From a virus (taxonomy: Duplodnaviria; Caudoviricetes), in IMG/VR virus record IMGVR_UViG_638276472_000001, positions 1 through 64,000 of that record: a DNA stretch of 64,000 bases, one strand, 5' to 3'. Shown here piece by piece: positions 11,154-63,572 of this stretch (the first letter of the stretch is position 1; each line of letters begins with the position of its first letter). Made by a program: the position numbers and the translations under genes. The notes under the pieces were generated by a model. The model saw nothing but the letters and a program-made list of their open reading frames with translations, was not told where the DNA came from and did not search any database.

Positions 11154-11157
11154 GTGA

Positions 11158-12192: not shown

Positions 12193-12246
12193 GGCCAGGG
12201 CCGGTTTACGAGCAGCCGTGTAATTGCTCGGATATGGAGTAGAACA

Positions 12247-12903: not shown

Positions 12904-12953
12904 TCCTCCGGATTTCCTTTCTGTAACCCCCCTTTCCATATAAGGACTTCGAA

Positions 12954-14132: not shown

Positions 14133-14144
14133 TAGGAGGATTCC

Positions 14145-15338: not shown

Positions 15339-15347
15339 GGATTCGAG

Positions 15348-15860: not shown

Positions 15861-15869
15861 GGATTTTCG

Positions 15870-16781: not shown

Positions 16782-16933
16782 GGTCGGAAGCCTTAGCATC
16801 TGGGGCGGTCAACCGGGGTAACACTCCGTATATGCCTACCCCCGCACTTATAGGAACCCTCAGTGGGACTTGGAGATAGCATCTCCTTTTCCTGCTGGGG
16901 GTTTCCTCGTTTCACAACAAAGGAGCAATTATC

Positions 16934-17278
16934 ATGGCTGGCAAGGCAACTGTGAAGGTTCAGGAAGACGCCGTCGATACTTTGGTCGATGAGACCTTGG
17001 GCGACGAGGACCGTTGGAATGACTACGTCACCGAAAACCCATGCCCCCCACTGGTTGTCAAGGGCATCCGCTTGACGCAGCCTTCGACTGAGGCTGTTGA
17101 GGAATGGACTCGCCGTCTGAATGAGCCGGATTCGGATGCTATTCTGATGGGGGAAGAGAACTACAAGAAGCTGAAGGCAGCTTTTGCGAAGGCCCCGTTC
17201 GGCGCGTGGCGTAACTTCCAGCGCGACTACATGACTCACATGTTCGGCTCGGATGATATGGCGACACTGGGAAAGTAA
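16934..17278 (+). CDS. tail assembly chaperone (gpG-like)
   Basis: AAGGAG SD; ends with slippery GGGAAAG before TAA. Confidence 0.88.
   Translation: MAGKATVKVQEDAVDTLVDETLGDEDRWNDYVTENPCPPLVVKGIRLTQPSTEAVEEWTRRLNEPDSDAILMGEENYKKLKAAFAKAPFGAWRNFQRDYMTHMFGSDDMATLGK
17269..17275 (+). other. programmed -1 frameshift site G GGA AAG
   Basis: X XXY YYZ heptamer; -1 frame is open into 17287-17700. Confidence 0.88.
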
Positions 17279-17286
17279 TTCAGGTC

Positions 17287-17700
17287 GTGAATCGCCACTG
17301 GGATGCGATCTCATGGGATTTCGATGAGATTCTTCACTTCTCGGCCTTCGAATACTTCCAGTGGACCCCTGCGCCGACGCGTTCGGGGTGGATGCGTAAG
17401 CGCCCGTGGCACGACTTTCTGTCGAAGGTGCAGCGTCTCGCTGAGATGGATGGTACCGCTACTCAAGAGTCCATTTTGCATGACCCTGAGGTTGTGGAGT
17501 GGATGGCCACTCACAAGCCGGGTAAGGCTGAGCCTCGTATCTGGGGCCAGACTCGCATCGTGAATCTGTTGATGTCGCAGATCGAGGTGGCGACCGGCAA
17601 GCCTATGAAGCGCGCGGTCATCCCTGGCGAGAAGCTAAGGGAGAAGCGCAATGTGAACCGTTTGAAGAACACCCTGTCCCGGATTGGGGTGCATAACTAG
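17287..17700 (+). CDS. tail assembly chaperone frameshift extension (gpT-like)
   Basis: -1 frame relative to upstream gene; precedes tape measure. Confidence 0.85.
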   Translation: MNRHWDAISWDFDEILHFSAFEYFQWTPAPTRSGWMRKRPWHDFLSKVQRLAEMDGTATQESILHDPEVVEWMATHKPGKAEPRIWGQTRIVNLLMSQIEVATGKPMKRAVIPGEKLREKRNVNRLKNTLSRIGVHN

Positions 17701-17707
17701 GAGAGCC

Positions 17708-20700
17708 ATGGCAGTACAGTATGCGGGTGAAGCCGCTATCCGTATTGTTCCTAGCCTCAGGAACTTTCGCTCGCGCGTGCAGAATGAGTTGTCGCGCAAG
17801 CCTCTTCGCTTCGATATTGACATTCGTCCGAATGTTGACACCACGAAGGCTGAGGCTGAGCTAGAAAGGTTCCGCGCCAAGGAATCTGCGGATGCGATCA
17901 ACCTCCGCGCCAAGGTCGATATTCGTGAGGCGCGTCAGGCCTTCTCGCAGGTCCAGCACATTTTCAAGCGCTCGGCTATTGCGAAGGCTTTGCGTGTCAA
18001 CCTTGTCGTGCTTGGCGGGGACGCCGTATACGCTGCCGTTGGCGCTCTTGGTTCTCTTGCCACTGCCGCTGACGTGGCGGGTAAGTCGCTGTTCGCGCTG
18101 CCTGCTGCGTTCGCGTCGGCTGGTGCTGCCGCTGGTGTGTTCGCTGCGTCGTTGATGGGCATCAAGGAAGCGTTCAAGGCGCTGTCGGATGACCAGGAAG
18201 ATGCCGCCCAGAATGCGCGTGAGTTGTCGAATGCTCAGCGCGATGCGGAGAAGGCCCATAGGGATGTTCGCCGTGCCATCAAGGATGTTGGTACGGCTTA
18301 TCGTGATGCCCGCCGCGAGGTTGAGGACTTGCATCGTGAGGTGCGTCGTGGGTCGTTGACTGAGGCTGAGGCGTTGCTGGATCTTCAGGACGCGGTTGAC
18401 AACCTGAAGAATGGTTCGTTCAAGAGCCTGAACGAGTTCCGCCGCGCACAGTTGAATGTGCTGAAGTCGTATGACTCGTTGCAGGAAACTCAGCTCCGTA
18501 ACACCCGCAACCAGGAAGACTTGAATCAGGCTCAGTCCGAAGGCATTGCGAACAACCAGCGTGTTGTGCAGGCTTTGGATGCGATGTCGGATGCCCAGCA
18601 GCGTGTGGCCGATTCGGCTGACCGCATGGCGAAGGCTACCGAGTCGAAGGGTGATGCGGCCCTTGCGAAGTTGGCTCCGGAGGCTCAGGAATTCGTACTC
18701 GCTTTGAAGGGTGCGGAGTCGGAGTTCATGAACTTCGTGCGCCTTATCCAGGGCGACGTGTTCCGTGGCCAGGCGAACAATGTCATTGACACTCTTCGCA
18801 CTTCGATCAAGAATCTTGGCCCTGATATTCGTGGTGTGGCTGGCGAGGTCAACGGGGTTCTTCAGGACCTTGGCGCTTCGCTGCGTTCGCCGGAGAATCA
18901 GAACCTGTTGAAGGGTGTGCTTGGTAACACCAAGTCGGGTCTGAACACTTTGCGCGATGGCATTGACCCTCTTGTTAATTCGCTTCTGCGCCTGTCGAAC
19001 ACTTCCGGATTCACTTCCCTTGCAGGGTGGTTGGTGACTCTGATTGACCGCTGGGATGCGTTCATTGAGCGTATCGACGCGTCGGGCGAGCTGGACGAGT
19101 GGATTCAGAACGGTATTCAGGGTCTCGACAATCTTCTGAACACGATCATTAACCTTGGGTCGTTCATCGCTAATGTGGCTGACGCGTGGCGCGCCGCTGG
19201 TGGTGACGCTCAGGGCGTCTTGGGTTCTGCCGAAAAGCTGACTGACCGTCTTGCGAAGTGGTCGGAGTCGGCTCAGGGCAAGAACTCGATGATCAATTAC
19301 TTCCGTGATGTTCGCGGGTTCATTGACGAAATCAAGGACGCATTCGGTGACATGCGTCCACTTCTTGCTTCCATCACTCAGTTCGTGCGTGACTGGTCCA
19401 CCGTCATGCTGAATCTTCTTGGTACTGCTGCCAAGTTGACTGAGTGGGTGGATGAGCACACCGGCTTGGTGAAGGTTCTTCTGTGGACTTGGTTGTCGTT
19501 CCGCACCATCGCTCCTATCTGGGGGATGCTTCAGACTGGTGCCAAGAATTATCTGAAGGTTGTCAAGGGTCTAGGTGAGGCCCAGGTGCCGGTGTTCCGA
19601 AACATGAACAACGGCTTGACCACCGCTAAGGACAACTGGAAGCAGATGACCGGCTATCAGGCCGGTGCCCATAGCACTTTCCAGCGCAGCAACATCCTGT
19701 TGACTGGTCAGGCTGCCGCTTTGCGTGACAACTTCGACGCCCAGAAGAAGATGCTGTCGCAGTTGCAGAAGACCAGCCCGCAGATCGTGGCGATGGGTAA
19801 TGCCGCTAAGGATGCAACCGGCAAGGTTGGTGGCGGTCCTGCTGGCGTGCAGGCTGGTTTGCGTGGTGCCCTTGGTGGTATCGCTGCGTTCATTGGTCCG
19901 TTGGCTGCCTCGATTGTGGCCACTGGCGGAATTATGTGGGCCATCGACAAGTTGGGCGAGGCTCACCGTAACGCCGCACGTGATGCCGATGACCAGCGTG
20001 CCGCTTTGGAGAACTTGAAGCAGACGCTTGACTCGACTACTGGTGCGTTCACTCAGCAGACTGCGCTTGAGTCGGCTAAGCAGGCCCAGTCGTACAGCAT
20101 CCCGAACTTCCCTGGCGGCGGCAACCGTAATGTGTTGTCGGACTTCGCCCGTACTGGCTTGGGCACTCCGCAGGATCTGATCAATGCGGGTAACCCAACT
20201 CAGCAGGCTCTCCGTAACGACGTTCTGGGCAAGCTGGACAACCAGACTCGTATCCGTGTTGAGCAGTCGCCTGAGTGGGCGCGTGGCCGTAAGTTCTGGG
20301 AAGAGCACGGCGTCACGTCGCTGGTGATGGCTCAGGCCATGAACGGTGACCCTTCGGCGGTTGCGAAGGTTCAGGCGGCTGAGCGTCAGGCGTTCGACCC
20401 CAAGGGAACTGGCAACCTGGGTGATAGGACTTACCAGTCGGCTCAGCGTCATCGTCATGGTATCGAAGACCTTTCGGCGATGATCTCCGCTACTGGCACG
20501 TATGACTTCGCGTCGTCGGCCATCTTCATCCGTGACCGTGCCGGGGCTTTGACTCAGGGCGGGCAGGCAATTCAGGAAGCCAACACGGCTGCTAATGGTC
20601 CTGTTGCGCTGAAGCCTGGCTCCACTCTGGGTGGTCCTGGTGCTCGCGTATACCGTGAGGGCGACACGTACAAGGTGGAGACTTCCGGTTCGGTTCCTCC

Positions 20701-23659
20701 TGGCTGGGAACAGGGTGTGCCTTCGGAAATTGGTCAGGCTATTCGTCTTCCGGATGGCCGTGGCCAGATTTTGTTGACTCCTGAGGCTGTGAAGAACAAC
20801 ATCGCCGGGTATGCCACTGGTGGTTTGATTCGCGGTGTTGGTTCTGGCACTAGCGATTCCAATATTGTCCGCGCGTCGATGGGTGAGTTCATCGTCCGCA
20901 AGGCCGCTGTGGACAAGTATGGCGTGCAAACGCTGAACAGCATCAACCAGGGCGAGATGCCAAGGTTTGATGGCGGCGGTATTTTCGCTGGCCCGTATGA
21001 CAATCCACCTCCTAACCCTTGGGCTGGCGTGTCGGCCAAGGGTACTACTGGCGTGTGGACCCCACCTCAGCAGCCGGGTGGTTCGGCGCTGTTGCGTGAG
21101 GCTGGCAAGACTGCGTCGCGTCTTCTGTTGGGTAGTGATCCTTACCCTGATTGGAAGCCGACTGTTCAGCTTGGGCCTCCGACGCCTCAGCCGGATAGCG
21201 GTGTGGATGACTGGATTGCCAAGCAGGGTCTTCCACAGCCTAAGCCTGCGCCGATCCCTACTCCTACGGCTCCGCAGAACAAGACGCCTGCGGCTCAGCC
21301 GACCGGCACTCCGGTAAAGGCCCCTAATACGAGTGGGCAGAAGACGGGTACCACCCCGACCGCTACTCCGACCACGCATGGTTCGGGTACTGCGGGACCG
21401 GGGAATACTGTCACGCCTCCGAACGGCATCCCTCACGGCCAGGGGGCCGCTACAAACCTTGGGGGTACTGGTTATACCGTACCTACCACGTTTGGCGCTT
21501 CTGTGCCCGCTGGGGCCGCTGCAATCCCCGGTTCTTCGTACGGTCTGCCCGCTGGTAGCGCCATCAGCTACGGAGCTGAGGGATTCCCCGATTGGGTGTA
21601 CACCCTTGGTTCTCAGTATGGTGTGGAAGCTTCGACCTACGCGGGGCACCAGGAACGCTCGGGTCAGAATCGTGGCCTTGACTGGCGTCCAAAGGGTATT
21701 GACGTACACACCCCTGAGGGTGCGGCGATCATGGACCGCTTCGCCCAGGCAATGATCAACACGCCTGGCGTGGAACAGGTCATTTGGAAGAATCCGTTCA
21801 CTGGCCAGATGTTCGGCAAGGACCCTGGCGACCGTGGCGCGAATCAGTCGATTGAGGACTACTACCGCGACGACTGGGCGGGCCACACCGATCACGTTCA
21901 TATTCGCACCTCGCAGGCTCTCGGTTTCCCTGAGGGTTTGAATCCTCAGGTGTTGGCGCAGTACCAGGCCCAGGGCCTACTTCCCAACCTGCCGGGCGTT
22001 GGCAACCTTGGTGCGCAGCAGAAGCAGCAGCCAAAGAGCTTGCTGGACTTGATTGTTGACAAGTACCGCAAGGCATACGAGCCTGAGCAGATCATGCAGT
22101 TCCTGGGCGACCAGGCTGCGAATGTCGGTAGGTCGTTGCAGGGCATCGGTCTTCAGGCATTGCAGGGCTTCACCGGCTTGGACCTGAGCGGCGTGTTCGG
22201 TAACGCAAGCAGCATCGGCTCCCACTTCCTGGGCGGCGGTGGGGATGGTGAAACCGGCTCGCTTGAAGAGGGGTCGGCCCTGGACCAGGCGATCACCGGC
22301 AACATGGACCAGTTCATGGCTGGCAACGGTGCGCTCGGTGTGGACATCGCTTCGCTGTTCGGTGGCCAGAAGCCCGCAACCAAGTCGCAGGGTGAAGGTG
22401 TAGACCAGTGGGACGACACCATTTTCGGTGTCTTGATGCAGCTTGCCCAGATGGGTCTCATCAACCCTTCGGAGATCCCTGACTGGATGGACGCGGTGAA
22501 GCGTCAGATGAAGATCGAGTCGGGCGGTAACCCCGGCGCGGTCAATAACTGGGATAGCAACGCGGCCAAGGGAACTCCATCCAAGGGTCTGATGCAGATG
22601 GTGGAGGGCACCTTCAACCAGCACAAGGTGCCTGGCATTGGTAGTGGTCAGTGGCTTGACCCGGTGTCGCAGATCGCGGCTTCGGTGATGTACGCCAAGT
22701 CCAAGGGTGGGCCGTCGTACATGACCGGCAAGCAGGGTTATGCCACTGGTGGTATGACTCCTAGCGACCTGATTCGTGTGTCGCGCGGCGAGTTCCGTAT
22801 GCAGCCCAAGGCTGTGTCGAAGTTCGGTTTGGGCTTCATGAACGCGCTGAACGCTGGCCAGCTTCCTGGCTTCTCTGAGGGTGGCGCTCCATTCCTGCCG
22901 TTCATGCCTACACCCGCCACGCCGCCACCTCCTAGCGGTCCTACCACACCTCCCGCACCGGGCGCTCAGCCCCATGGTCCCGCACCTCAGGCACCGGGTG
23001 TTCCTGCTCCGACGCCTGGTCCTGGGGTGCCCCCACCGGGTGGTCCGCTTCCTGGTCCCGCACCGGCTGAATTGGTTGGCCCTAATGGGGAATTGGACCC
23101 TCAGCAGCAGGCTCTTGCTGAGCAGCTAACTCGCGGTTTGGGCGCTGTTGGCGCTTCGCAGGGTAACATGGGTACTGGGTATCTGAACCCTGGCATCACT
23201 GGTGCCATTGAGGGTGGCTTCAACGCTCTCGGTTCGGCGGCGGGTACCGCTGCTGCTCTTGGTATCTCGGCTGGCACTATGGGTGCTGGTGCAGGTCCTG
23301 CCGCTGGTGCTGCCTCGCAGGCCATCTCGGCTGGTTTCCAGATCGCCGGTAAGGTCGCTTCGGGCGCTGCTAACATTCTGGGCGCTGCTGGTGTGGGTTC
23401 GATCAAGGATATCGGTTCTCAGGCAACCCCTTCGGGTGCGCCGTTGCTTCCTGTGCAGACTCCGGAGACTTTCGGTGCGCTGCCTTCGCAGCAGCAGATG
23501 CAGCAGGCCCAGAACCCTCAGCCCGCTCAGGCCGGTCCAATGATCGTGAACAACTACATGGGCGGCATCCACACCACCAACCTTGACGACTTCCAGCGTC
23601 GCCAGCAGAGGTTGATGGATCAGCAGGGCCAGCCCATCATCAGCAAGTACGCCATCTAA
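17708..23659 (+). CDS. tape measure protein with muralytic domains
   Basis: ~1983 aa, Ala/Gly-rich; ESGGNP..VNNWDSNA..GTPSKGLMQ (lytic transglycosylase-like); GHQE..GLD...HTDHVH. Confidence 0.95.
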   Translation: MAVQYAGEAAIRIVPSLRNFRSRVQNELSRKPLRFDIDIRPNVDTTKAEAELERFRAKESADAINLRAKVDIREARQAFSQVQHIFKRSAIAKALRVNLVVLGGDAVYAAVGALGSLATAADVAGKSLFALPAAFASAGAAAGVFAASLMGIKEAFKALSDDQEDAAQNARELSNAQRDAEKAHRDVRRAIKDVGTAYRDARREVEDLHREVRRGSLTEAEALLDLQDAVDNLKNGSFKSLNEFRRAQLNVLKSYDSLQETQLRNTRNQEDLNQAQSEGIANNQRVVQALDAMSDAQQRVADSADRMAKATESKGDAALAKLAPEAQEFVLALKGAESEFMNFVRLIQGDVFRGQANNVIDTLRTSIKNLGPDIRGVAGEVNGVLQDLGASLRSPENQNLLKGVLGNTKSGLNTLRDGIDPLVNSLLRLSNTSGFTSLAGWLVTLIDRWDAFIERIDASGELDEWIQNGIQGLDNLLNTIINLGSFIANVADAWRAAGGDAQGVLGSAEKLTDRLAKWSESAQGKNSMINYFRDVRGFIDEIKDAFGDMRPLLASITQFVRDWSTVMLNLLGTAAKLTEWVDEHTGLVKVLLWTWLSFRTIAPIWGMLQTGAKNYLKVVKGLGEAQVPVFRNMNNGLTTAKDNWKQMTGYQAGAHSTFQRSNILLTGQAAALRDNFDAQKKMLSQLQKTSPQIVAMGNAAKDATGKVGGGPAGVQAGLRGALGGIAAFIGPLAASIVATGGIMWAIDKLGEAHRNAARDADDQRAALENLKQTLDSTTGAFTQQTALESAKQAQSYSIPNFPGGGNRNVLSDFARTGLGTPQDLINAGNPTQQALRNDVLGKLDNQTRIRVEQSPEWARGRKFWEEHGVTSLVMAQAMNGDPSAVAKVQAAERQAFDPKGTGNLGDRTYQSAQRHRHGIEDLSAMISATGTYDFASSAIFIRDRAGALTQGGQAIQEANTAANGPVALKPGSTLGGPGARVYREGDTYKVETSGSVPPGWEQGVPSEIGQAIRLPDGRGQILLTPEAVKNNIAGYATGGLIRGVGSGTSDSNIVRASMGEFIVRKAAVDKYGVQTLNSINQGEMPRFDGGGIFAGPYDNPPPNPWAGVSAKGTTGVWTPPQQPGGSALLREAGKTASRLLLGSDPYPDWKPTVQLGPPTPQPDSGVDDWIAKQGLPQPKPAPIPTPTAPQNKTPAAQPTGTPVKAPNTSGQKTGTTPTATPTTHGSGTAGPGNTVTPPNGIPHGQGAATNLGGTGYTVPTTFGASVPAGAAAIPGSSYGLPAGSAISYGAEGFPDWVYTLGSQYGVEASTYAGHQERSGQNRGLDWRPKGIDVHTPEGAAIMDRFAQAMINTPGVEQVIWKNPFTGQMFGKDPGDRGANQSIEDYYRDDWAGHTDHVHIRTSQALGFPEGLNPQVLAQYQAQGLLPNLPGVGNLGAQQKQQPKSLLDLIVDKYRKAYEPEQIMQFLGDQAANVGRSLQGIGLQALQGFTGLDLSGVFGNASSIGSHFLGGGGDGETGSLEEGSALDQAITGNMDQFMAGNGALGVDIASLFGGQKPATKSQGEGVDQWDDTIFGVLMQLAQMGLINPSEIPDWMDAVKRQMKIESGGNPGAVNNWDSNAAKGTPSKGLMQMVEGTFNQHKVPGIGSGQWLDPVSQIAASVMYAKSKGGPSYMTGKQGYATGGMTPSDLIRVSRGEFRMQPKAVSKFGLGFMNALNAGQLPGFSEGGAPFLPFMPTPATPPPPSGPTTPPAPGAQPHGPAPQAPGVPAPTPGPGVPPPGGPLPGPAPAELVGPNGELDPQQQALAEQLTRGLGAVGASQGNMGTGYLNPGITGAIEGGFNALGSAAGTAAALGISAGTMGAGAGPAAGAASQAISAGFQIAGKVASGAANILGAAGVGSIKDIGSQATPSGAPLLPVQTPETFGALPSQQQMQQAQNPQPAQAGPMIVNNYMGGIHTTNLDDFQRRQQRLMDQQGQPIISKYAI

Positions 23660-23667
23660 GGTGAGAC

Positions 23668-25263
23668 ATGTTCGAGGACGTAGACGAGTACCCGGCGAAG
23701 ATTGAGATCTTCGGCTGGCAGAACACCGATTTGGATGTGAACCATCCTCACTACTTCTGCATCTCCGGTGACGGTAAGGGTGAGGAAGGCGCTATCTTGC
23801 GCCCAAATCTCAAGGGGGCCATTGACGCTCCGGTGAAGTCGTTGTGGCTTCCTGGTGCGTTCGGTCAGGTGTTCGTTGACTTCCGTTGGCAGCGTAGGGA
23901 TGTCGTCTTCACCGTGTTCCTGTTTGACCCTGGTGACGATACGGCTTCCGGTTTCCACACTATCGACGCCCGTTGGCGTGCGTGCTGGGACTACGTCCGT
24001 GAGTCCACTATCCGCTGGACTTACCAGGACGAGACGATGGACGAGCCTGATGTGCGAATCATCAAGGCCCGCATGCTGGAAGAGCCGAAGTCGTATTCGA
24101 CTGACCCGTGGGAGGGTAAGGACCCTCACCTGTATCACTGCGCGAACATCGTGATGACCACGGCGTGCGAGCTTCCTTTCTATCAGGCCCCGAACAAGGT
24201 GTACACCTGGGTTCCCGAGGTGGGTGAGTTCGCCGCCGAGGTTGACTTCTCGACTATCGAGGACACTGAGATCCCCGTCGGGTTCGAATTGAAGTCCACG
24301 CTCGGCTCGGGTGGTGGCATGCAGGTCGTTGACGGCAAGTGGGTATGGGTGTCGTCGGGTTCTGTTGCGGCGGAACAGACTTACTTGTACACCGCTGGGG
24401 AGCCTGAGACCGACTTCTTCGAGGTGGCGATGAAGGTCTCGGCGCTTCCGGAGTTGGGCTTCAATCCCGGTGACACATGGTTGATCGGTCGCTCGGATGA
24501 CGACATGGACAACTTTGTGTTCTGCAAGATTGAGTACCAGATCGCAAACTTGGTGGCACTGGTGACCTTTGGGTACGTGAAGGACGGCGGTAACCCTGTC
24601 CCGCTTTCGATCCTCCCCACTGTCGTCACTGGTGTTTCACCAGGCGACACATGGTATTTCGCTGGGACGGGTAATACCACATTCCGCTTGAAGCTGAATG
24701 ATCGCGTGGTCGCTCGCGGCAAGGATACTGGTGGGAACTCCCGCGTGGGTGCGGACTACCGTGGCGTTGGCTTCAAGTTCGCCGCCGCACCGACCTACCT
24801 GTTTGGTCAGCATGAGCCTGCGCCCGTGTCTTTGGTGGCGTTCCGTGATGTTCCTACGGCTGATGAACAGGAACTCACCTTCGAGGTGACCAATGATGGC
24901 GATGTGCCATGCTTCCCACGTTGGACCCTGACTGGGAATGCGGACTGGACTCTGCCCGATTATTCGTTCGGGAATGAAGAGTATGGTCGCCCAATCGAGG
25001 ATGCGGATCGTGAAGTTCCATTGCCGCACTTGCCGATTGATGTTGGGTGTGTGGCGGATGCCGACCCCCGTCGCAGGACTTTGATGGCTGACGACAGGTC
25101 GCACCTTCAGGGCCGCTGGAAGGGTCAGGATCTTCTATATCCGATTCCGCATGGCACACATACGATTACGGTTCGCGTAGCCAACGCTGAGGATGGGTTC
25201 GCCATGAGGCTTGAACTCCCACAGTGGTTTACGCGTCCATGGGGAAGGGTTGATGAGCTGTGA
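23668..25263 (+). CDS. minor tail protein (distal tail-like)
   Basis: Follows TMP; NDGDVPCFPRWTL..WTLPDYS, PQWFTRPWG motifs. Confidence 0.88.
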   Translation: MFEDVDEYPAKIEIFGWQNTDLDVNHPHYFCISGDGKGEEGAILRPNLKGAIDAPVKSLWLPGAFGQVFVDFRWQRRDVVFTVFLFDPGDDTASGFHTIDARWRACWDYVRESTIRWTYQDETMDEPDVRIIKARMLEEPKSYSTDPWEGKDPHLYHCANIVMTTACELPFYQAPNKVYTWVPEVGEFAAEVDFSTIEDTEIPVGFELKSTLGSGGGMQVVDGKWVWVSSGSVAAEQTYLYTAGEPETDFFEVAMKVSALPELGFNPGDTWLIGRSDDDMDNFVFCKIEYQIANLVALVTFGYVKDGGNPVPLSILPTVVTGVSPGDTWYFAGTGNTTFRLKLNDRVVARGKDTGGNSRVGADYRGVGFKFAAAPTYLFGQHEPAPVSLVAFRDVPTADEQELTFEVTNDGDVPCFPRWTLTGNADWTLPDYSFGNEEYGRPIEDADREVPLPHLPIDVGCVADADPRRRTLMADDRSHLQGRWKGQDLLYPIPHGTHTITVRVANAEDGFAMRLELPQWFTRPWGRVDEL

Positions 25264-58128: not shown

Positions 58129-58446
58129 ATGCCGACGAGTAGTGCCAATGGGCCACGCTCCCTTGGTCGTACAGGATCTCGCTACCTTTCAGCGCGACGA
58201 CAAGTGTTGGAAGCCAACCCGATCTGTCACCTGTGCGGGGAACTCATTGACCTGGACTTGAAGTGGCCCGATCCCATGTATGGGACGGCTGACCACATCA
58301 TTCCGGTCAAGGATCTTGCACGTGACGATCCCAGGCTCTATGACCCGAAGAACCTTAGGCCAGCACATCTTTCGTGCAATGCGCGCCGAGGTTCGACTAA
58401 GCACAAGGTGGACCACCCCAATAGTCTTGTTTTGCGCATGGGCTGA
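58129..58446 (+). CDS. HNH endonuclease (cos-packaging type)
   Basis: CHLCG, DHIIP, NLRPAH.SCN..RG. Confidence 0.88.
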   Translation: MPTSSANGPRSLGRTGSRYLSARRQVLEANPICHLCGELIDLDLKWPDPMYGTADHIIPVKDLARDDPRLYDPKNLRPAHLSCNARRGSTKHKVDHPNSLVLRMG

Positions 58447-58452
58447 TACAAT
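58442..58452 (+). promoter_or_regulatory. extended -10 promoter GCTGATACAAT
   Basis: Identical 11-mer at 7360-7370. Confidence 0.55.
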
Positions 58453-58485
58453 CAAGGTGGAAAGCTTTCCCTTTTAGGAGATATC

Positions 58486-58710
58486 ATGGCAGACGTAGAA
58501 TACCCAGAACCGGGTAAGGGACCTTTCGGTGTGACCGCACCTTCGAAGGCTCAGAAGGCTGAAGACCTGGCGAAGGTTACTGCACCAGAAGTGACTTCGG
58601 TGAATCCGGAGCCGTACACCGAGGAAGAGTTGAACCATCGCTTCAACCATGTTCCTGGCGACAGCTTCGCGGGTGACCCGGCGATCACCATTCAGGGCAT
58701 CAACGACTAA
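58486..58710 (+). CDS. hypothetical protein
   Basis: AGGAG SD; 74 aa. Confidence 0.75.
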   Translation: MADVEYPEPGKGPFGVTAPSKAQKAEDLAKVTAPEVTSVNPEPYTEEELNHRFNHVPGDSFAGDPAITIQGIND

Positions 58711-58715
58711 CAGCC

Positions 58716-58737
58716 GAAAACTGATACCGGATATGAT
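58716..58737 (+). promoter_or_regulatory. GAAAA-box promoter of the RNA operon (GAAAACTGAT-N6-TATGAT)
   Basis: Consensus match directly upstream of ncRNA/tRNA array. Confidence 0.8.
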
Positions 58738-58743
58738 GAGTAG

Positions 58744-58807
58744 GACCGAGAGACAGGGTTCACTCTCTTCCGGCTAGCAGGTCCCAGCTAGTGGTCGAAA
58801 TGGGACC
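58744..58807 (+). ncRNA. candidate three-way-junction pseudoknot RNA
   Basis: P1 GACC/GGTC, P2 GAGAG/CTCTC, P3 GCTAGC/GCTAGT, pseudoknot GGTCCCA/TGGGACC. Confidence 0.55.
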
Positions 58808-58811
58808 ATAT

Positions 58812-58882
58812 GCGCTGATAGTGTAGTGGTAACACGGCAAGCTCCAACCTTGCTATCTGGGGTTCAAGTCCTCATCAGCGTG
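58812..58882 (+). tRNA. tRNA-Trp(CCA)
   Basis: Cloverleaf; GCAAG-CTCCAAC-CTTGC; no encoded CCA. Confidence 0.92.
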
Positions 58883-58917
58883 CTTGTGCTTTTGATAACT
58901 ACATAGTGAATCTTTAT

Positions 58918-59332
58918 GGGGCTGACAGGTTTTCGATTACGTGACTAGAGAATTCGAGAAGCGTGCCAGTATGTGTTCCACTGTGATGGGCACGAACCAA
59001 TAAACGCAGTCGATACTGACGTTGACTTTGCGATGTGGGAGGCCGAACTGGCTTCCGACCTCGTTGCTGCCTGAGGGTAGCAAGTCCGTTCCGCCACAAG
59101 CCAACTGAGGGCGTGTGGATTTGGGGCGTGGTAAAACTCAGAACCACAGGGGATTAACAGCCTTTATCTGCGACCTGTTCAAAACGCACAGAGGGCAACC
59201 CGGTCGGCGGGTAACCCGTTCTAGTCCGTGGCTGATTGTGATGCTAAGCGAGGGATGAAGATTCAGCTCACTACGCACGTAGAAGGCGTATTTGATAGAC
59301 GTAAGACCCGGGTTCGATTCCCGGCAGCTCCA
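58918..59332 (+). ncRNA. ssrA: tmRNA; tag ORF 59006-59074 (A)AVDTDVDFAMWEAELASDLVAA
   Basis: GGGGCTG/CAGCTCC acceptor with G3:U70, T-arm CCGGGTTCGATTCCCGG, resume context ATAAAC-GCA, tag ending AA-stop. Confidence 0.93.
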
Positions 59333-59495
59333 CAGAGCGGAAGGTCTGGGCTCGAAAGCCCAGTCAAGAGGTGTTAGGCGTTGGAAGCGTAAACCCTTTT
59401 GGTGGTGTAAAGTCAGCACGCCCGCGTTATTCTTGCCAGGCCCGTGCTGGCGTCCAGTGAGAGAGCCCGAATGAGCGACGGGCAATGCGGGAAAT

Positions 59496-59566
59496 CAGGG
59501 TGTGGTGTAGTGGTCGCATGGCTGCCTTGGAAGCAGGCGGACGCAGTTCAATTCTGCGCACCCTGA
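59496..59566 (+). tRNA. tRNA-Pro(TGG)
   Basis: CAGGGTG/CACCCTG; loop CTTGGAA. Confidence 0.9.
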
Positions 59567-59586
59567 CGATGCGGGCTAGTTCCCGC

Positions 59587-59608
59587 GAAAACTGATGGGA
59601 GATAAGGT
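59587..59608 (+). promoter_or_regulatory. GAAAA-box promoter inside RNA operon (GAAAACTGAT-N6-TAAGGT)
   Basis: Consensus match. Confidence 0.65.
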
Positions 59609-59610
59609 CA

Positions 59611-59784
59611 ATGGCGGATACGCGTTATTACGGCACTGCTGAGTTGAGCAAGGCCGCACAGGAAAAGTTGGAAGCGAAGAAGAATCCGAAGCCGAAGGTG
59701 GCTCCACGTCCCGAACCGAAGCCGGTTGCGCCGAAGGTTGAGGCCGCGAAGCTTCCGGAGAAGCGGGACGAAAAGAAGGACTAG
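59611..59784 (+). CDS. Lys/Pro/Glu-rich small protein (57 aa)
   Basis: GGAG SD; MADTRYYGTAELSK...KPKVAPRPEPKPVAPK. Confidence 0.6.
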   Translation: MADTRYYGTAELSKAAQEKLEAKKNPKPKVAPRPEPKPVAPKVEAAKLPEKRDEKKD

Positions 59785-59890
59785 CAGTTTTCCAGTTCCC
59801 CTGCAACTCAATGGAACTGGTGGTGGAAATCAGACGGCAACTCCGTTTGGCCCTGGGCGCGCCTACCCGTCCGCAACCCGGTAGGCGACT

Positions 59891-59963
59891 CGGTCGTTAG
59901 TGAAGATGGAGATCACGCGGGCCTGAAAAACCCGAGACGCAGGTTCGATTCCTGCACGACCGG
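59891..59963 (+). tRNA. tRNA-Phe(GAA)
   Basis: CGGTCGT/ACGACCG; loop CTGAAAA. Confidence 0.9.
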
Positions 59964-59968
59964 CCTTT

Positions 59969-60045
59969 TGCGGTGTAGTGGAGTTCGGTACCATGCGAGG
60001 CTCATAACCTCTGCGACACGGGTTCAAATCCCGTCGCCGCGACCA
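59969..60045 (+). tRNA. tRNA-Met(CAT), initiator-like
   Basis: Loop CTCATAA, weak 1:72 pair, TTCAAAT T-loop, encoded CCA. Confidence 0.9.
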
Positions 60046-60061
60046 AGAATTGGGGCAAATC

Positions 60062-60148
60062 ATGCGTAAGGAATACAACGACCGTTGGACTGCTGAGCTT
60101 CGTGAGCCTTATGCCTCTGAGCAGCAGGACGACGACGAGGAAGATTGA
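60062..60148 (+). CDS. possible 28-aa acidic peptide
   Basis: MRKEYNDRWTAELREPYASEQQDDDEED fills the Met-Tyr spacer. Confidence 0.45.
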   Translation: MRKEYNDRWTAELREPYASEQQDDDEED

Positions 60149-60156
60149 AAAACTTT

Positions 60157-60238
60157 GCGTCAGACGCACATTGGGTAGTGCAGCGGTCTGTAAAACCGTC
60201 GCCTTCGGGCATTGGGGGTTCAAGTCCCTCCTGACGCA
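60157..60238 (+). tRNA. tRNA-Tyr(GTA)
   Basis: GCGTCAG/CTGACGC; loop CTGTAAA; long variable arm. Confidence 0.92.
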
Positions 60239-60311
60239 CTTTAAGGGGTTGGTACCAAACCCCTTCGGCTTAAGAGTATTTGTGCCGACTGAAACAATGG
60301 CTCCCCAAAAT

Positions 60312-60382
60312 GGGGGTATCGTATAATGGTATTACGCCTGCCCTGCAAGCAGGTCATTGGGGTTCAATTCCCCATACCTCCA
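60312..60382 (+). tRNA. tRNA-Ala(TGC)
   Basis: G3:U70; CCTGC-CCTGCAA-GCAGG (C33). Confidence 0.88.
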
Positions 60383-60437
60383 CGGGGATTCAGGTTCTCG
60401 TTCGATTCGAGATGCGACCCGTCGCTGAATCCACAAT

Positions 60438-60508
60438 GCCCGCTTAGCTCAATGGGAGAGCCACCGGCCTACACCCGGTAGACGAGAGTTCAATTCTTTC
60501 AGCGGGTA
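60438..60508 (+). tRNA. tRNA-Val(TAC)
   Basis: ACCGG-CCTACAC-CCGGT (C33). Confidence 0.88.
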
Positions 60509-60578
60509 CTAGAAAGGGAAACCTGAGCCGAGACAGGTGAAACTATCGGTAAGCCGCCCGGGGCTGGACCGGGACGAT

Positions 60579-60652
60579 GGCTCGTTATGCAAACCGGCAA
60601 AGCAGCCTGCCTTAGAAGCAGGTGTTTCAGGGTTCGACTCCCTGGCGAGCTA
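60579..60652 (+). tRNA. tRNA-Leu(TAG)
   Basis: CCTGC-CTTAGAA-GCAGG; short variable region. Confidence 0.9.
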
Positions 60653-60710
60653 CGTAGGAAGCGGTGAGAGCCCGTTCCCTTAGACCCCAGAAGGGGAGCA
60701 GAGGGTTGAT

Positions 60711-60783
60711 GGTCGTGTAGGCAAATGGCAAAGCCGCCAAGCTCAAACCTTGGTGTTTGTGGGTTCAACTCCCACCGCGACTA
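60711..60783 (+). tRNA. tRNA-Leu(CAA)
   Basis: CCAAG-CTCAAAC-CTTGG; short variable region. Confidence 0.9.
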
Positions 60784-60879
60784 CGTTTAGCCCCTAACGG
60801 GTCCGAGTCTTGGGAGTTGTCGTTCCCCAAGTCCGAGTGCTAAGCAAAAACCCCAAAGGCCAAGGGGTAACGACATTTT

Positions 60880-60952
60880 GAGGGTGAAGTGTTAACGGTA
60901 TGCACGGCTGTCTTCCAAACAGCAAGAGCGAGTTCGATTCTCGTCACCCTCA
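60880..60952 (+). tRNA. tRNA-Gly(TCC)
   Basis: GCTGT-CTTCCAA-ACAGC. Confidence 0.92.
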
Positions 60953-61028
60953 CGCGTGTTGGTCGTGATTCGTGAAACGCGACTAGGGTTGTAACCTGTT
61001 GCCGTGCACAGCAACTGAAGAACAGTAT

Positions 61029-61099
61029 GTGGACGTGATGTAATGGTAGCCTCCCCGCTTGCCAAGCAGGGTGTGCGGGTTCAATTCCCGTCGTCCGCA
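61029..61099 (+). tRNA. tRNA-Gly(GCC)
   Basis: Loop TTGCCAA; weak D stem. Confidence 0.88.
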
Positions 61100-61150
61100 C
61101 TTGCGACCTTAGGTGGGTTTGGAGGTCTGTAAACATGAGACCCACCAGCT

Positions 61151-61223
61151 GCCCCCATACCGGCGCGGTCCCCTACACCGTGAGCCGTAATGGACGATGC
61201 AGGTTCGAATCCTGTTGGGGGCG
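61151..61223 (+). tRNA. non-canonical D-armless tRNA-like RNA (nominal anticodon CCT, Arg)
   Basis: Acceptor GCCCCCA/TGGGGGC and T-arm intact; no canonical D arm. Confidence 0.6.
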
Positions 61224-61287
61224 CAAGGACCGACAGTGTTCTGATGTGGCAGAGGATAACCACAGCGCGCGCTTAACCTCTCATAAT

Positions 61288-61359
61288 TGCCCTATGGTGT
61301 AATTGACAGCACAGGTGGCTCTGAACCATCTAGTCGAGGTTTGAATCCTTGTGGGGCAG
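61288..61359 (+). tRNA. tRNA-Gln(CTG)
   Basis: T1:A72; GGTGG-CTCTGAA-CCATC. Confidence 0.9.
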
Positions 61360-61577
61360 CGCAGAGTAGGCGTGACTGCCTACTTACCGTCTCGTCAACG
61401 GCAGGCCGGTGGGAAGCCCTGAAAAGAAATATCAGCCACACAGACTTTGATTGCGCACCTCGTGAGTCTACCTTCGGCGGAAGGCAAGTCACGGGGGAGG
61501 GCGGGTCAAAAAACCCCGCGTACACTGGGGCCGGATTGGGGTCGCGCTCATGAAAGTCCTGGCGGTTGCGGGTCAAT
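61360..61577 (+). ncRNA. candidate ~215-nt multi-domain structured RNA
   Basis: Several hairpins and long-range GACTTT/AAAGTC helix between two tRNAs. Confidence 0.45.
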
Positions 61578-61649
61578 CCCGTCATAGTGTAGTGGTTAAC
61601 ACGCCAGCTTGTCACGCTGGTAGCGAGGGTTCAATTCCCTCTGGCGGGG
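61578..61649 (+). tRNA. tRNA-Asp(GTC)
   Basis: CCAGC-TTGTCAC-GCTGG. Confidence 0.92.
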
Positions 61650-61656
61650 CGTCAAT

Positions 61657-61730
61657 GGCTTTGTAGCTCAACGGTTTTAGAGCAGCTGTCTAGTAAACAG
61701 CCGACCAGGGTTCGACTCCCTGCTTAGCCT
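61657..61730 (+). tRNA. tRNA-Thr(AGT)
   Basis: GCTGT-CTAGTAA-ACAGC; two T:T mismatches in acceptor. Confidence 0.8.
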
Positions 61731-61802
61731 CGCAGAAGGTTCGCTACCTTCAAACGTCGAAACCAGGCGGGGATAACGACGTTAAACCAGGCCCCGCCCA
61801 AT

Positions 61803-61874
61803 GGGGGCGTAGTATAACGGCAATTACTGTTGGCTCTTACCCTTCAGATGGGAGTTCGACTCTCCCCGCCCTCA
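61803..61874 (+). tRNA. tRNA-Lys(CTT)
   Basis: Loop CTCTTAC; two T:T mismatches in anticodon stem. Confidence 0.85.
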
Positions 61875-61881
61875 CTTCAAT

Positions 61882-61957
61882 GCCGGTGTGACAGAACGAT
61901 TTATGTGGCAGTCTGCAAAACTGACCTAAGCGGGTTTGACTCCCGCCACCGGTTCCA
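61882..61957 (+). tRNA. tRNA-Cys(GCA)
   Basis: Loop CTGCAAA; U73; encoded CCA. Confidence 0.9.
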
Positions 61958-61959
61958 AT

Positions 61960-62031
61960 TGGCCCGTAGTTCAACGGTAAGAACGGATCGCTGATAACGA
62001 TCAGACAAGAGTTCAACTCTCTTCGGGCCAA
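61960..62031 (+). tRNA. tRNA-Ile(GAT)
   Basis: GATCG-CTGATAA-CGATC. Confidence 0.92.
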
Positions 62032-62138
62032 CGTTTAAGGTCGAAGCCGCAAAAGGCTAGTGATGCCAGGTAACTGGGTTAAGCACCGATGTGGGGTGTC
62101 CGTAACGAATCGACCTGGGGCAGTTACCCCACTTCAAT

Positions 62139-62211
62139 GCCCGTGTAGCTCAGTGGATAGAGCCGTGGCCTACGAAGCCATGGGCCGGGGGTTCGAATCC
62201 CTCCACGGGTA
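62139..62211 (+). tRNA. tRNA-Arg(ACG)
   Basis: Loop CTACGAA; canonical cloverleaf. Confidence 0.93.
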
Positions 62212-62236
62212 CGTCAGGGCCTAGTAATGGCCCTTT

Positions 62237-62318
62237 GGAGAGTGATGCAACAGGGTGGTTGCACTCGCCTGCTAAGCGATGTGTCTGCAAGGATCACGTT
62301 CAACTCGTGCTCTCTCCG
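62237..62318 (+). tRNA. tRNA-Ser(GCT)
   Basis: Loop CTGCTAA; variable arm; G73. Confidence 0.85.
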
Positions 62319-62320
62319 CT

Positions 62321-62394
62321 GTGTCTGTAGCTCAATGGTAGAGCCTCCCGCTGTGACCGGGACGACGACGGGTCAGAACCGTCCAGACACCCCA
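62321..62394 (+). tRNA. tRNA-His(GTG)
   Basis: TCCCG-CTGTGAC-CGGGA; C73, encoded CCA; atypical T-loop; no encoded G-1. Confidence 0.85.
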
Positions 62395-62454
62395 CTTGGT
62401 TTCCTTAGACGCCAGAGGAACGTAAGCAGTCACAGGGGCGAGACTGGCCATAAT

Positions 62455-62539
62455 GGAGGGTAACGCCGGAAGGTACCGGCAGCGGTGTCGAATACCGTGT
62501 GGGTAGCCAATCCCAGGAGTTCAAGTCTTCTGCCCTTCG
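62455..62539 (+). tRNA. tRNA-Ser(CGA)
   Basis: GCGGT-GTCGAAT-ACCGT; long variable arm. Confidence 0.87.
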
Positions 62540-62609
62540 CGTGCGTGACCAAAAGACATGACGAAACCCGGCACCCCTCGACAATGCCGGATCTCGTTCT
62601 GTCACAGTG

Positions 62610-62927
62610 TTATTGAATGTAGCCTTCGTTGTAGGCGGCAAGTACCGAACGGGTGATACGAGGCAATGTTGCTCCGTAGCCCCACAATTCGGTGTCGTGG
62701 AAGTAGTGCATGGCCACTCGCTGAGCTGTTCGCTTGGTGTCGAATGGTCCCTCCACCACTTCCGCGTCCCGATGGCCATCACCGTCTTTTTCCCAGATGG
62801 TGAGTACCCATTCGGGGTATGTCGATTCTTTGCGGCGCATGGTCACAAAGATCTCTTCTTCGGTCTCCGCTTGGTAGACCCCGGTGTCAACGCGGACCCA
62901 CTTGAGGTCCTGATCTGCATCTGTCAT
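62610..62927 (-). CDS. hypothetical protein inserted antisense in tRNA array
   Basis: MTDADQDLKW...EGPFDTKRTAQ; TAACAT 7 nt before ATG. Confidence 0.7.
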   Translation of the reverse strand: MTDADQDLKWVRVDTGVYQAETEEEIFVTMRRKESTYPEWVLTIWEKDGDGHRDAEVVEGPFDTKRTAQRVAMHYFHDTELWGYGATLPRITRSVLAAYNEGYIQ

Positions 62928-63025
62928 ACCTGCAATGTTACTCCCAAACCTGGGAATTCCCTTGTGGAGCACTGTTGATCATCGTATTACATAAGATGCG
63001 ATTCACGTTTTTGCCATTAACTAAT

Positions 63026-63097
63026 GGTTCCGTGGTGTAACGGTTAGCACCTGGGTCTTTCAAGCCCAAGGTCAGGGTTCAACTCCCTGCGGAACTG
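63026..63097 (+). tRNA. tRNA-Glu(TTC)
   Basis: TGGGT-CTTTCAA-GCCCA. Confidence 0.92.
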
Positions 63098-63102
63098 CGC
63101 AT

Positions 63103-63173
63103 GGCCCACTGGTGTAATGGGAACACGCCACCCCCTCAAGGTGGAGTCAGGGGTTCAATTCCCCTGTGGGCTA
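63103..63173 (+). tRNA. tRNA-Glu(CTC)
   Basis: CCACC-CCCTCAA-GGTGG (C33). Confidence 0.9.
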
Positions 63174-63179
63174 CTCTAT

Positions 63180-63250
63180 TCCGGTATCGTTCAAAGGCAG
63201 GACACCAAGCTGTTAACTTGGCTATGTTGGTTCGATCCCAGCTACCGGAG
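63180..63250 (+). tRNA. tRNA-Asn(GTT)
   Basis: T1:A72; CCAAG-CTGTTAA-CTTGG. Confidence 0.92.
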
Positions 63251-63256
63251 CAACCA

Positions 63257-63286
63257 CCCCGTCTCCTCGTGAGGCGGGGTTTTTTT
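63257..63286 (+). terminator. intrinsic terminator ending tRNA operon
   Basis: CCCCGTCTC/GAGGCGGGG hairpin + T7. Confidence 0.9.
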
Positions 63287-63298
63287 ATGCCCAGGCCC

Positions 63299-63326
63299 CA
63301 GAAATGATGGGTGATAGGTTAGCTGC
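63299..63326 (+). promoter_or_regulatory. degenerate GAAAA-box promoter (CAGAAATGAT-N6-TAGGTT-N6-ATG)
   Basis: Same spacing, right after terminator. Confidence 0.65.
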
Positions 63327-63572
63327 ATGGCATTGAAAGACCGGCTCAAGATCATGCATGAGGAAAGAAATACGCAGGTCAGGTACCTGCGTATCACCCC
63401 TCTGCTGAGCGGCGGCTGCCGACTGGGTGTGACCGCCGAAGATCTGTACGAAGTCTTCGGGGGGTATGTGGGCAGCGGGTATGTCCTGAAGTCTGCCGAC
63501 AAGGGCGATGACGGGTCGTGGGAGTTTGCTCTGGAGATGACCGACTTCACGATGAAGCCCGTTGAACCCTGA
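63327..63572 (+). CDS. hypothetical protein
   Basis: 81 aa, leaderless. Confidence 0.7.
   Translation: MALKDRLKIMHEERNTQVRYLRITPLLSGGCRLGVTAEDLYEVFGGYVGSGYVLKSADKGDDGSWEFALEMTDFTMKPVEP

Follow-up and report, generated by a model that had tools for sequence, protein, structure and literature searches.

Folded spacers and cassette exchange in the tRNA/tmRNA array of a Wildcat-type mycobacteriophage

The DNA analyzed here (the window) comprises positions 1 to 64,000 of IMG/VR virus record IMGVR_UViG_638276472_000001, a 78,296-bp record from a Wildcat-type mycobacteriophage of the genus Wildcatvirus (cluster V). Toward its 3' end lies a ~4.5-kb array of transfer RNA (tRNA) genes and a transfer-messenger RNA (tmRNA) gene, and the spacers of this array are the subject of the present work. 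The array holds 26 tRNA-type genes, counting the tmRNA, all on the plus strand. Between 58700 and 63300 the window is 96.5-98.9% identical to Mycobacterium phages EniyanLRS, Cosmo, and Azrael100, and the array and its tRNAs have already been annotated and published (PMC1475703; PMC10586154; EniyanLRS preprint), with spacers unmentioned in the accessible parts of these sources. A sequence-only reading of the window had described eight of the spacers, numbered here as modules by position, as pseudoknotted RNAs released by processing of the flanking tRNAs. Taken together, the evidence below inclines us, if not strongly, to regard the folding of the spacers as a generic architecture for processing by ribonuclease P (RNase P), with helix-capped spacer 3' ends, onto which evolutionary debris has been laid.

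Default ARAGORN recognized 23 tRNAs and the tmRNA on the plus strand, and the start of tRNA-Ser(cga) appears, on our own reading of its acceptor stem, to be at 62455. The 10-bp box GAAAACTGAT, which stands ahead of the first tRNA, occurs in five exact copies in the window, at 48187 (minus strand), 53710, 56500, 58716, and 59587; with one mismatch allowed there are nine matches against 3.1 expected, a number attained in 0 of 100 shuffles. The copies at 58716 and 59587 are each followed 6 nt downstream by a TANNNT hexamer. This box is probably a phage promoter element, and the start of transcription is predicted near 58743-58745, so that module 1 (58744-58807) would form the 5' leader of the operon's primary transcript; the other seven modules are internal spacers of the array. 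Two small open reading frames (ORFs) of 57 aa (59611-59784) and 28 aa (60063-60148) occur within the array, and each of the three relatives has them, conserved and annotated. The box at 59587 immediately precedes the ATG of the 57-aa ORF, which looks leaderless. On the plus strand, the terminator at 63256 is the only terminator-like site at an array boundary, and none was found inside the array.

The sequences that border the tRNAs follow a common pattern. With the gene starts called by ARAGORN, 25 of the 26 tRNA-type genes (58811-63251) have T at position -1; Ser(cga) alone does not, and it too would have T there with a start at 62455. A U at -1 is a known preference of RNase P. The leader consensus is C-A-A-T, with A at -2 in 18 genes, A at -3 in 13, and C at -4 in 13. 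On the other side of the tRNAs, the base after the discriminator (position 74 in the ARAGORN call) is C in 23 genes and A in three, and CCA is encoded for Met, Cys, and His only. Cleavage by an RNase Z-type enzyme followed by CCA addition is the established pathway for genes that lack CCA, and since 23 of the 26 genes carry C74 without CCA, it is an RNase Z-type cut that would free the upstream tRNA. In the arrays of actinophages Reindeer, Boopy, and LuckySocke, too, most discriminators are followed by C (70 of 78 genes). RNA data were available from one study, as contigs only; in one of its two small runs, a single contig bridges 59155-63400, though such contigs cannot show strand, ends, spacer levels, or a single transcript, and may reflect DNA carry-over. 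In the other run, parts of the array are without contig cover, a gap that carries no weight as evidence. In the first run the tmRNA core (58937-59122) formed separate unitigs with a depth of ~10,000-25,000, compared with 464-783 for the flanking contigs, and the phage tmRNA was therefore very abundant in that library. Considering the co-oriented tRNAs, the lack of an internal terminator, the U(-1) leaders, and the bridging RNA contig, it is fair to infer, as had been proposed, that the spacers are excised by RNase P and 3' processing, the cleavage events themselves being predicted.

To locate pairing along the spacers, 16 long spacers were folded alone and compared with shuffles that kept the last 4 nt of each spacer. 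The probability of being paired at positions -10 to -5 from the next tRNA was 0.65, compared with 0.49 in the shuffles (Wilcoxon p = 0.014); positions -4 to -1 of these spacers were mostly free, and the first 8 nt showed no such effect (0.53 vs. 0.49). The same pattern was found in 32 inter-tRNA spacers of Reindeer (Mycobacterium), Boopy (Gordonia), and LuckySocke (Streptomyces), where pairing at -10 to -5 was 0.76-0.87 vs. 0.52-0.54 (Wilcoxon p = 2.6e-8). This test covered inter-tRNA spacers only. The region before tRNA-Trp of Reindeer looked strongly structured, but its structure is accounted for by the terminator of the preceding gene, a 21-bp hairpin, and it has no homology to module 1. 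Folds that stop a few bases before the next tRNA are thus general, which points to processing architecture rather than to module-specific functions. As a separate observation, RNA-handling genes adjoin these other arrays: Ro-like RNA-binding proteins in Boopy and LuckySocke, an RNA ligase in LuckySocke, and a 'tRNA splicing ligase' in Reindeer. Ro proteins bind small structured Y RNAs, and some spacers in these other arrays might therefore encode RNAs of that sort.

The complementary strings reported for the eight modules are all present, with GCCGA/TCGGT and GACCTT/GAGGTC each requiring one G-U pair. Each module ends 4-10 nt ahead of a tRNA-type gene; the gene after 61146 is the tRNA-like element at 61151-61223 and that after 62450 is tRNA-Ser(cga). 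To learn how far such pairings exceed chance, we scored each spacer by its best pair of crossing perfect helices, using ViennaRNA stacking energies, against dinucleotide shuffles; the score sums stacking only, with no loop or knot penalties, and so ranks a spacer against its shuffles and is not a free energy. With the module boundaries of the sequence-only reading, which had been chosen after the stems were seen, four of eight gave p < 0.05. Among 19 whole spacers, p < 0.05 was reached by four for crossing helices and by five for nested minimum free energy (MFE), with Fisher combined p values of 7e-4 and 3e-5, respectively. When 15 spacers of 50-110 nt were compared with 75 length-matched random segments of the window, the mean MFE z was -1.15 vs. 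-0.25 (p = 0.002) and the mean crossing-helix z was -1.04 vs. -0.13 (p = 0.004). The arrays of Reindeer, Boopy, and LuckySocke gave mean MFE z values of -0.96 to -1.69, and five of their 32 spacers had a crossing-helix z below -2.5.

Two internal spacers account for the clearest pseudoknot signals (Table 1). The observed score of 61101-61150 was equaled in 3 of 6000 shuffles (p = 0.0007) and that of 61732-61802 in 5 of 6000 (p = 0.001), and both surpassed all 75 of the random segments. The first of these has no Rfam match and, being invariant in all four phages compared below, offers no covariation. Signals in the Leu-Leu spacer (p = 0.019, 6000 shuffles) and the Ile-Arg spacer were nominal. 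As pseudoknots, the modules at 60521, 60787, 61245, and 62397 could not be told from chance on whole spacers. For the proposal at 61245-61281 the p value was 0.013 on the module as drawn but 0.15 on the whole spacer, and the 4-bp 'kissing loops' described at 62397-62450 were not significant by either measure. The shuffles thus place the spacers as a set above chance, two modules clearly so, and leave three of the eight proposed pseudoknots credible (58744, 61105, and 61753), the first of them on the comparative grounds that follow.

Table 1. Coordinates of features in and around the array; p values refer to crossing helices on whole spacers unless marked otherwise.
Feature	Position	Strand	Remarks
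Promoter-like element	58716-58737	+	10-bp box GAAAACTGAT, then TATGAT hexamer
Module 1, three-way junction	58744-58807	+	P1 58744-47/58793-96; P2 58748-52/58763-67; P3 58774-78/58787-91
Hairpin	59346-59363	+	12 nt past tmRNA; retained in EniyanLRS, stem re-registered by an insertion and 3 substitutions
Val-Leu spacer (module 2)	60510-60578	+	p = 0.26; 60548-60577 probable debris of 5' half of tRNA-His-like gene
Leu-Gly spacer (module 3)	60785-60879	+	MFE z = -1.71 (p = 0.06 for MFE); p = 0.21
Gly-tRNA-like spacer	61101-61150	+	H-type pseudoknot candidate 61105-61146: 61105-10/61122-27 crossing 61112-20/61138-46
tRNA-like gene	61151-61223	+	Rfam tRNA model 29.7 bits; gathering score 29
tRNA-like-Gln spacer (module 5)	61225-61287	+	5+5 bp pseudoknot proposed at 61245-61281; p = 0.15
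Thr-Lys spacer	61732-61802	+	T-arm-like hairpin 61735-61751; H-type pseudoknot candidate 61753-61798: 61753-59/61777-83 crossing 61766-72/61792-98
Ile-Arg spacer (module 7)	62033-62138	+	Nested fold, 7-bp closing stem with three hairpins; MFE z = -2.35; p = 0.028 (1500 shuffles)
His-Ser(cga) spacer (module 8)	62395-62454	+	MFE z = 0.08; p = 0.18
tRNA-Ser(cga)	62455-62540	+	Overlooked by default ARAGORN; recovered at -ps85 as 62456-62540; annotated in Cosmo and EniyanLRS
Intrinsic terminator	63256-63285	+	End of array; 10-pair stem, then 7-T run

Module 1 is the structure for which related phages provide comparative evidence. In it, the loop of P3 (58780-86) pairs with 58801-07, forming the pseudoknot; its shuffle p value was 0.033 on the coordinates first given and 0.072 on the whole spacer. 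There are two leader alleles, one in the window and Cosmo and the other in Azrael100 and EniyanLRS, which differ by 11 substitutions and a 2-nt indel within the 36 columns that hold the crossing helices. Despite these differences, all 21 pairs form in three distinct sequences and none is broken. Three pairs changed on both sides, two in the helix 58774-78/58787-91 and one in 58780-86/58801-07, the latter helix also having two pairs changed on one side; P1 and P2 are invariant. As a control, sliding the partners by 1-3 columns gave 0-1 double-changed pairs. When 11 substitutions were placed at random 200,000 times, the 12 crossing pairs all survived in 1.35% of trials, and in 0.23% they did so with at least three double changes. 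By the usual comparative standard, as applied to these two alleles, the leader pseudoknot is real. The covariation that had been proposed as a check on the modules was seen in module 1 only, the others being invariant or absent in the relatives.

We compared the four genomes (the window, EniyanLRS, Cosmo, and Azrael100) along the rest of the array. Although these phages are nearly identical in this region, seven tracts have been swapped or interrupted between them, six within the array and one past Ser(cga). Azrael100 and EniyanLRS depart from the window in the leader's 3' half and in tRNA-Trp. In Cosmo, an HNH gene interrupts the Trp-tmRNA spacer, the Phe-Met tract is different, and another HNH gene stands in place of the Thr-Lys spacer, alongside a diverged tRNA-Lys; the Thr-Lys spacer itself is identical in Azrael100 and EniyanLRS. 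The tract around Ile-Arg takes in tRNA-Ile. In EniyanLRS the Ala-Val, Gly-Gly, and Ile-Arg spacers are unrelated to those of the window (88, 79, and 60 nt vs. 54, 75, and 106 nt). Replacement spacers share neither sequence nor fold with the versions in the window: Ile-Arg is exchanged for two plain hairpins, and the Gly-Gly spacer is unstructured in the window (z = +0.55) and strongly structured in EniyanLRS (z = -2.75). In all, five modules are missing or replaced in sister phages on the same laboratory host, and since M. smegmatis mc2155 is on record as a host for all of these phages, individual modules would be dispensable there. The tRNAs of swapped tracts keep their anticodons but diverge (e.g., tRNA-Lys), which suggests unsampled relatives with the same gene order. 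Judged by these alignments, the array is, over 58762-62581, a mosaic hot spot and its spacer sequences are disposable.

Outside the swapped tracts, substitutions affected 1.04% of aligned columns in spacers, 0.37% in tRNAs, and 1.23% in ORFs. There were 35 substitution events in spacers, of which 19 fell at unpaired sites, 12 kept a pair (all of them one-sided changes), and four broke one. Since two of the four pair-breaking events belong to the re-registered hairpin at 59346-59363, pairing was kept in 12-14 of 16 changes at paired sites. In the Leu-Gly spacer, the relatives have three substitutions, two of them in loops and the third, at 60850, changing an A-U pair to G-U; in the tRNA-like-Gln spacer the substitutions lie outside the stems; and in the His-Ser(cga) spacer two one-sided changes reinforce nested hairpins. 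No substitution event falls in the crossing helices at 61105-61146, 61245-61281, and 61753-61798, which are therefore uninformative for covariation.

Former tRNA genes supply part of the complementarity. Positions 60548-60577 of the Val-Leu spacer align with the D and anticodon half of tRNA-His (local score 30; set-level p = 0.0013), and the leader aligns at 58751-58774 with tRNA-Ile, over its T arm and the 3' strand of its acceptor stem (set-level p = 0.004). Of 60 control segments treated alike, one reached p <= 0.01. Positions 61757-61772 of the Thr-Lys spacer match the 3' end of the Cosmo allele of tRNA-Lys in 15 of 17 columns, with one gap (pairwise p = 0.003, set-level p = 0.08), so that the 7-bp GGCGGGG/CCCCGCC helix seems to have inherited one of its strands from an acceptor stem. 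In 1.6 kb of spacer there are four T-arm-like hairpins with a TTCNNNN loop, compared with 0.58 expected from the remainder of the window. On the strength of these alignments, at least two or three spacers are recognizable tRNA-gene debris whose stems supply some of the complementarity. Whole decayed tRNAs were also sought, using relaxed ARAGORN and, with filters off, a covariance model built from 21 of the phage's own tRNAs, and only 61151-61224 was returned; no spacer matched the model better than E = 0.96. Exact matches between spacers and tRNAs were no longer than chance would give, save for one downstream of tRNA-Ser(cga) and near a minus-strand terminator, where 62594-62606 is an exact 13-nt complement of the D-arm region of tRNA-Cys (0 of 60 shuffles attain 13 nt).

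It could therefore be asked whether the spacers are debris and nothing more, that is, whatever tRNA gene decay, homing-endonuclease traffic, and deletions have left behind, free of selection except on the 4-nt RNase P leader, with stems that descend from tRNA arms. The tRNA-fragment similarities, the T-arm-like hairpins, and the degenerate tRNA at 61151 would all be expected on this account, as would the wholesale replacement of spacers between sister phages and a spacer divergence close to that of the ORFs and above that of the tRNAs. Even so, we regard it as unlikely. A helix at the specific position -10 to -5 recurs in four unrelated arrays, most substitutions at paired sites keep pairing, and the leader pseudoknot has compensatory changes. 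Moreover, since the full tRNA model finds no relic in the spacers beyond 61151, debris explains part of the structure but not all of it.

The element at 61151-61223 bears on a related alternative. The covariance model of the phage's own tRNAs scored it at 29.7 bits (E = 2.4e-8), and ARAGORN matched it at a relaxed threshold only. It has a perfect 7-bp acceptor stem and an intact T arm, together with a reduced or defective D arm and an irregular anticodon arm, which makes decoding doubtful. It is conserved in all four cluster V phages and is unannotated in the three relatives; its arms indicate a decaying tRNA or one of odd design. Such an element invites the idea that some spacers encode non-decoding, tRNA-shaped stable RNAs like those of phages T4 and T5, with 61151-61223 standing above the Rfam tRNA threshold, the Ile-Arg spacer having a cloverleaf-like fold (Table 1), and the Ala-Val spacer having an 8-bp closing stem and a T-arm-like hairpin (UCUCG-UUCGAUU-CGAGA). 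The T4 tRNA region contains 'RNA species I and II', according to the accessible part of its description (PMC2330249). We nevertheless find this idea improbable for the phage spacers, since relaxed ARAGORN and the tRNA model gave only a T-arm match (E = 1.9) for the Ile-Arg and Ala-Val spacers, the former having no match to tRNA models, and since both spacers are replaced by unrelated sequence in EniyanLRS.

A more ambitious claim of the sequence-only reading was that the tRNAs set apart a series of effector RNAs, such as antitoxin mimics, nuclease decoys, or ribozymes, and that these make up a candidate RNA-based counter-defense system. Tandem Repeats Finder (score >= 30) found no arrays in 58400-63400, and no repeat family is common to the spacers, all families found being parts of tRNAs. 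No Rfam family matched any spacer at E <= 1, nor either of the two best modules at E <= 10. Distant blastn searches with 61101-61577 and 61732-61802 against 50,697 phage records returned no homologues outside cluster V, only cluster V phages and tRNA-Gln genes; a search of IMG/VR with the 120-aa ORF yielded no further relatives, and exact scans for the leader core gave no matches in viral contigs and none in metagenome contigs. In these repeat, Rfam, and similarity searches no link of the modules to toxins, nucleases, or ribozymes was found. Type III antitoxins (ToxI) are small pseudoknotted RNAs in tandem repeats of ~36 nt that are cut by their own toxin, and the pseudo-ToxI of phage phiTE reportedly shows that phage copies can counter an abortive-infection toxin. 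The candidates described here are likewise small and pseudoknotted; in contrast to ToxI, they have no tandem repeats, no repeated spacer family, and no match to an Rfam antitoxin RNA, and the suggestion of antitoxin mimicry is unsupported.

Some observations do agree with a counter-defense role. Two or three of the pseudoknots are statistically or comparatively credible, 3' ends made of a helix plus 4 nt should favor RNA stability, and a high turnover between sister phages suits an arms-race accessory locus, of a kind that should vary and that a phage could do without on a laboratory host. Against these stand the negative searches, the generic rather than module-specific nature of the structured layout, the failure of five of the eight modules to stand out from chance as pseudoknots, the derivation of some modules from tRNA debris, and, as a weak hint, unitigs of the tmRNA ~10,000-25,000 deep as compared with a mean depth of 783 for the array contig. 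With spacers that are disposable and in part debris, we consider a panel of dedicated effector RNAs highly improbable, and the claim as made is unsupported. A variant to which we give equally little credence is that helix- or pseudoknot-capped spacers (58744-58811, 61101-61150, and 61732-61802 above all) are a changing set of exonuclease-resistant RNAs, released by RNase P and shuffled by homing endonucleases, that titrate or jam host RNases or RNA-targeting defense nucleases.

The reading that we favor, processing with a capped 3' end, would run as follows. One polycistronic tRNA/tmRNA operon would be transcribed from the box at 58716 and again from that at 59587, and the pseudoknotted three-way-junction leader would most likely shield the 5' end of the primary transcript. 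The last element of a long spacer would tend to be a helix, which in some cases is crossed by another to give a pseudoknot, and this last helix would stop 4-5 nt before the next tRNA, leaving a single-stranded C-A-A-U leader. RNase P would cut after U(-1) of each tRNA, and an RNase Z-type cut after the discriminator with CCA addition would finish the 23 CCA-less tRNAs. The spacer would then leave as a by-product with a helix-capped 3' end and a 4-nt tail, a poor substrate for 3' exonucleases, and the helix may be selected as cleavage context, as 3' cap, or as both. The remainder of the spacer would drift, be replaced through homing-endonuclease traffic, and gather tRNA debris. Of the functions suggested at the outset for the modules, an exonuclease block comes close to this putative cap.

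Several results weigh against this reading. Bacterial RNase P protein contacts the leader at about -4 to -8 as a single strand, so a helix from -5 is not obviously favorable. A cap leaves unexplained the second, crossing helix (p <= 0.001) in two spacers. The p values of the debris alignments, when multiplied by 15 spacers, become 0.02 and 0.06 and are moderate signals. The idea that spacers fold on themselves as insulators, avoiding mispairing with the neighboring tRNAs, was rejected, cross-pairing being 17.5 summed pair probabilities in native sequences and 14.6 in shuffled ones (p = 0.74, n = 12). Finally, we had considered strand asymmetry as proof of selection at the RNA level and dropped it, since the mean z was similar on the two strands (-1.20 on plus, -1.04 on minus); with no asymmetry, complementarity is not assignable to the RNA level from sequence alone.

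Equal complementarity on both strands is what would be expected if the inverted repeats were DNA-level signals, namely sites of recognition or of recombination used by the HNH homing endonucleases as they mobilize tRNA cassettes. HNH genes occur in two Cosmo spacers and just upstream of the array, swapped tracts have both their ends in or near spacers, and in T4, SegB cuts inside its tRNA cluster (accessible part of PMC2330249). Yet the spacers share no motif, their repeat families being all tRNA-derived; the helix is placed relative to RNA processing, at -5, a constraint not needed for a DNA site; and compensatory changes conserve pairing and not sequence. Of the explanations weighed here, we hold this to be the least probable.

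If the -5 helix of the processing reading is selected, phage tRNA arrays would carry a second layer of information beside the tRNAs, in the form of a folding rule that lets RNase P and 3' enzymes handle 20-30 tRNAs per transcript. Such a rule, if true, would aid the annotation of phage tRNA arrays and the design of synthetic ones, and would offer a way to approach the fate of the excised pieces. The results also counsel caution, many 'pseudoknots' seen by eye in GC-rich spacers being chance or inherited tRNA stems, and the rapid exchange of cassettes shows homing endonucleases remodeling tRNA arrays.

Our literature search turned up nothing on how spacers fold in phage tRNA arrays or on this -5 helix layout. 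Several known systems resemble parts of it. Flaviviral exoribonuclease-resistant RNAs (xrRNAs) have a three-way junction with a loop-to-downstream pseudoknot, a ring closed by a 5'-end pseudoknot, and conserved nucleotides. Module 1 is like them in its three-way junction and in the pairing of the P3 loop with downstream sequence, which forms in three distinct sequences; the likeness covers junction and loop pairing only, there is no Rfam xrRNA match, and module 1, sitting at a predicted transcription start, would have no upstream RNA on which an exonuclease could load. The 3' external transcribed spacer of glyW-cysT-leuZ is said to act as a sponge of small RNAs (sRNAs) by base-pairing to known sRNAs. 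It is thus also an excised piece of a pre-tRNA, with a function of its own that needs sRNA targets, none of which is predicted here. In MALAT1 and MEN-beta, an RNase P cut at a tRNA-like RNA (mascRNA) makes the 3' end of the upstream RNA, and a compact structure just upstream protects that end. The placement of a structure directly upstream of a tRNA-type RNase P site would be shared with the phage array; MALAT1, however, comes from eukaryotes, where a U-A-U triple helix with an A-rich tract forms the cap. The sole match to the Rfam mascRNA-menRNA family was on tRNA-Glu itself, below threshold.

Among phages, the closest parallel is the tRNA region of T4, described in the accessible parts of PMC2330249 and PMC13096335 as a tRNA cluster with non-tRNA stable RNAs and a homing endonuclease gene that is preferentially inherited and mosaic between relatives. 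SegB of T4 is a GIY-YIG enzyme, as opposed to the HNH genes here, and the spacers here are known from sequence and not as stable RNAs. Among bacteria, the polycistronic pre-tRNAs of E. coli that are split by RNase P (valV-valW, valU, and lysT; accessible part of PMC4176162) are co-transcribed, as we propose for this array, and an RNase P cut at the 5' end of each tRNA leaves the spacer on the upstream piece as a 3' trailer. Unlike those of the E. coli operons, the phage spacers are long, at 50-217 nt, have a high GC content, and fold with a helix that starts at -5.

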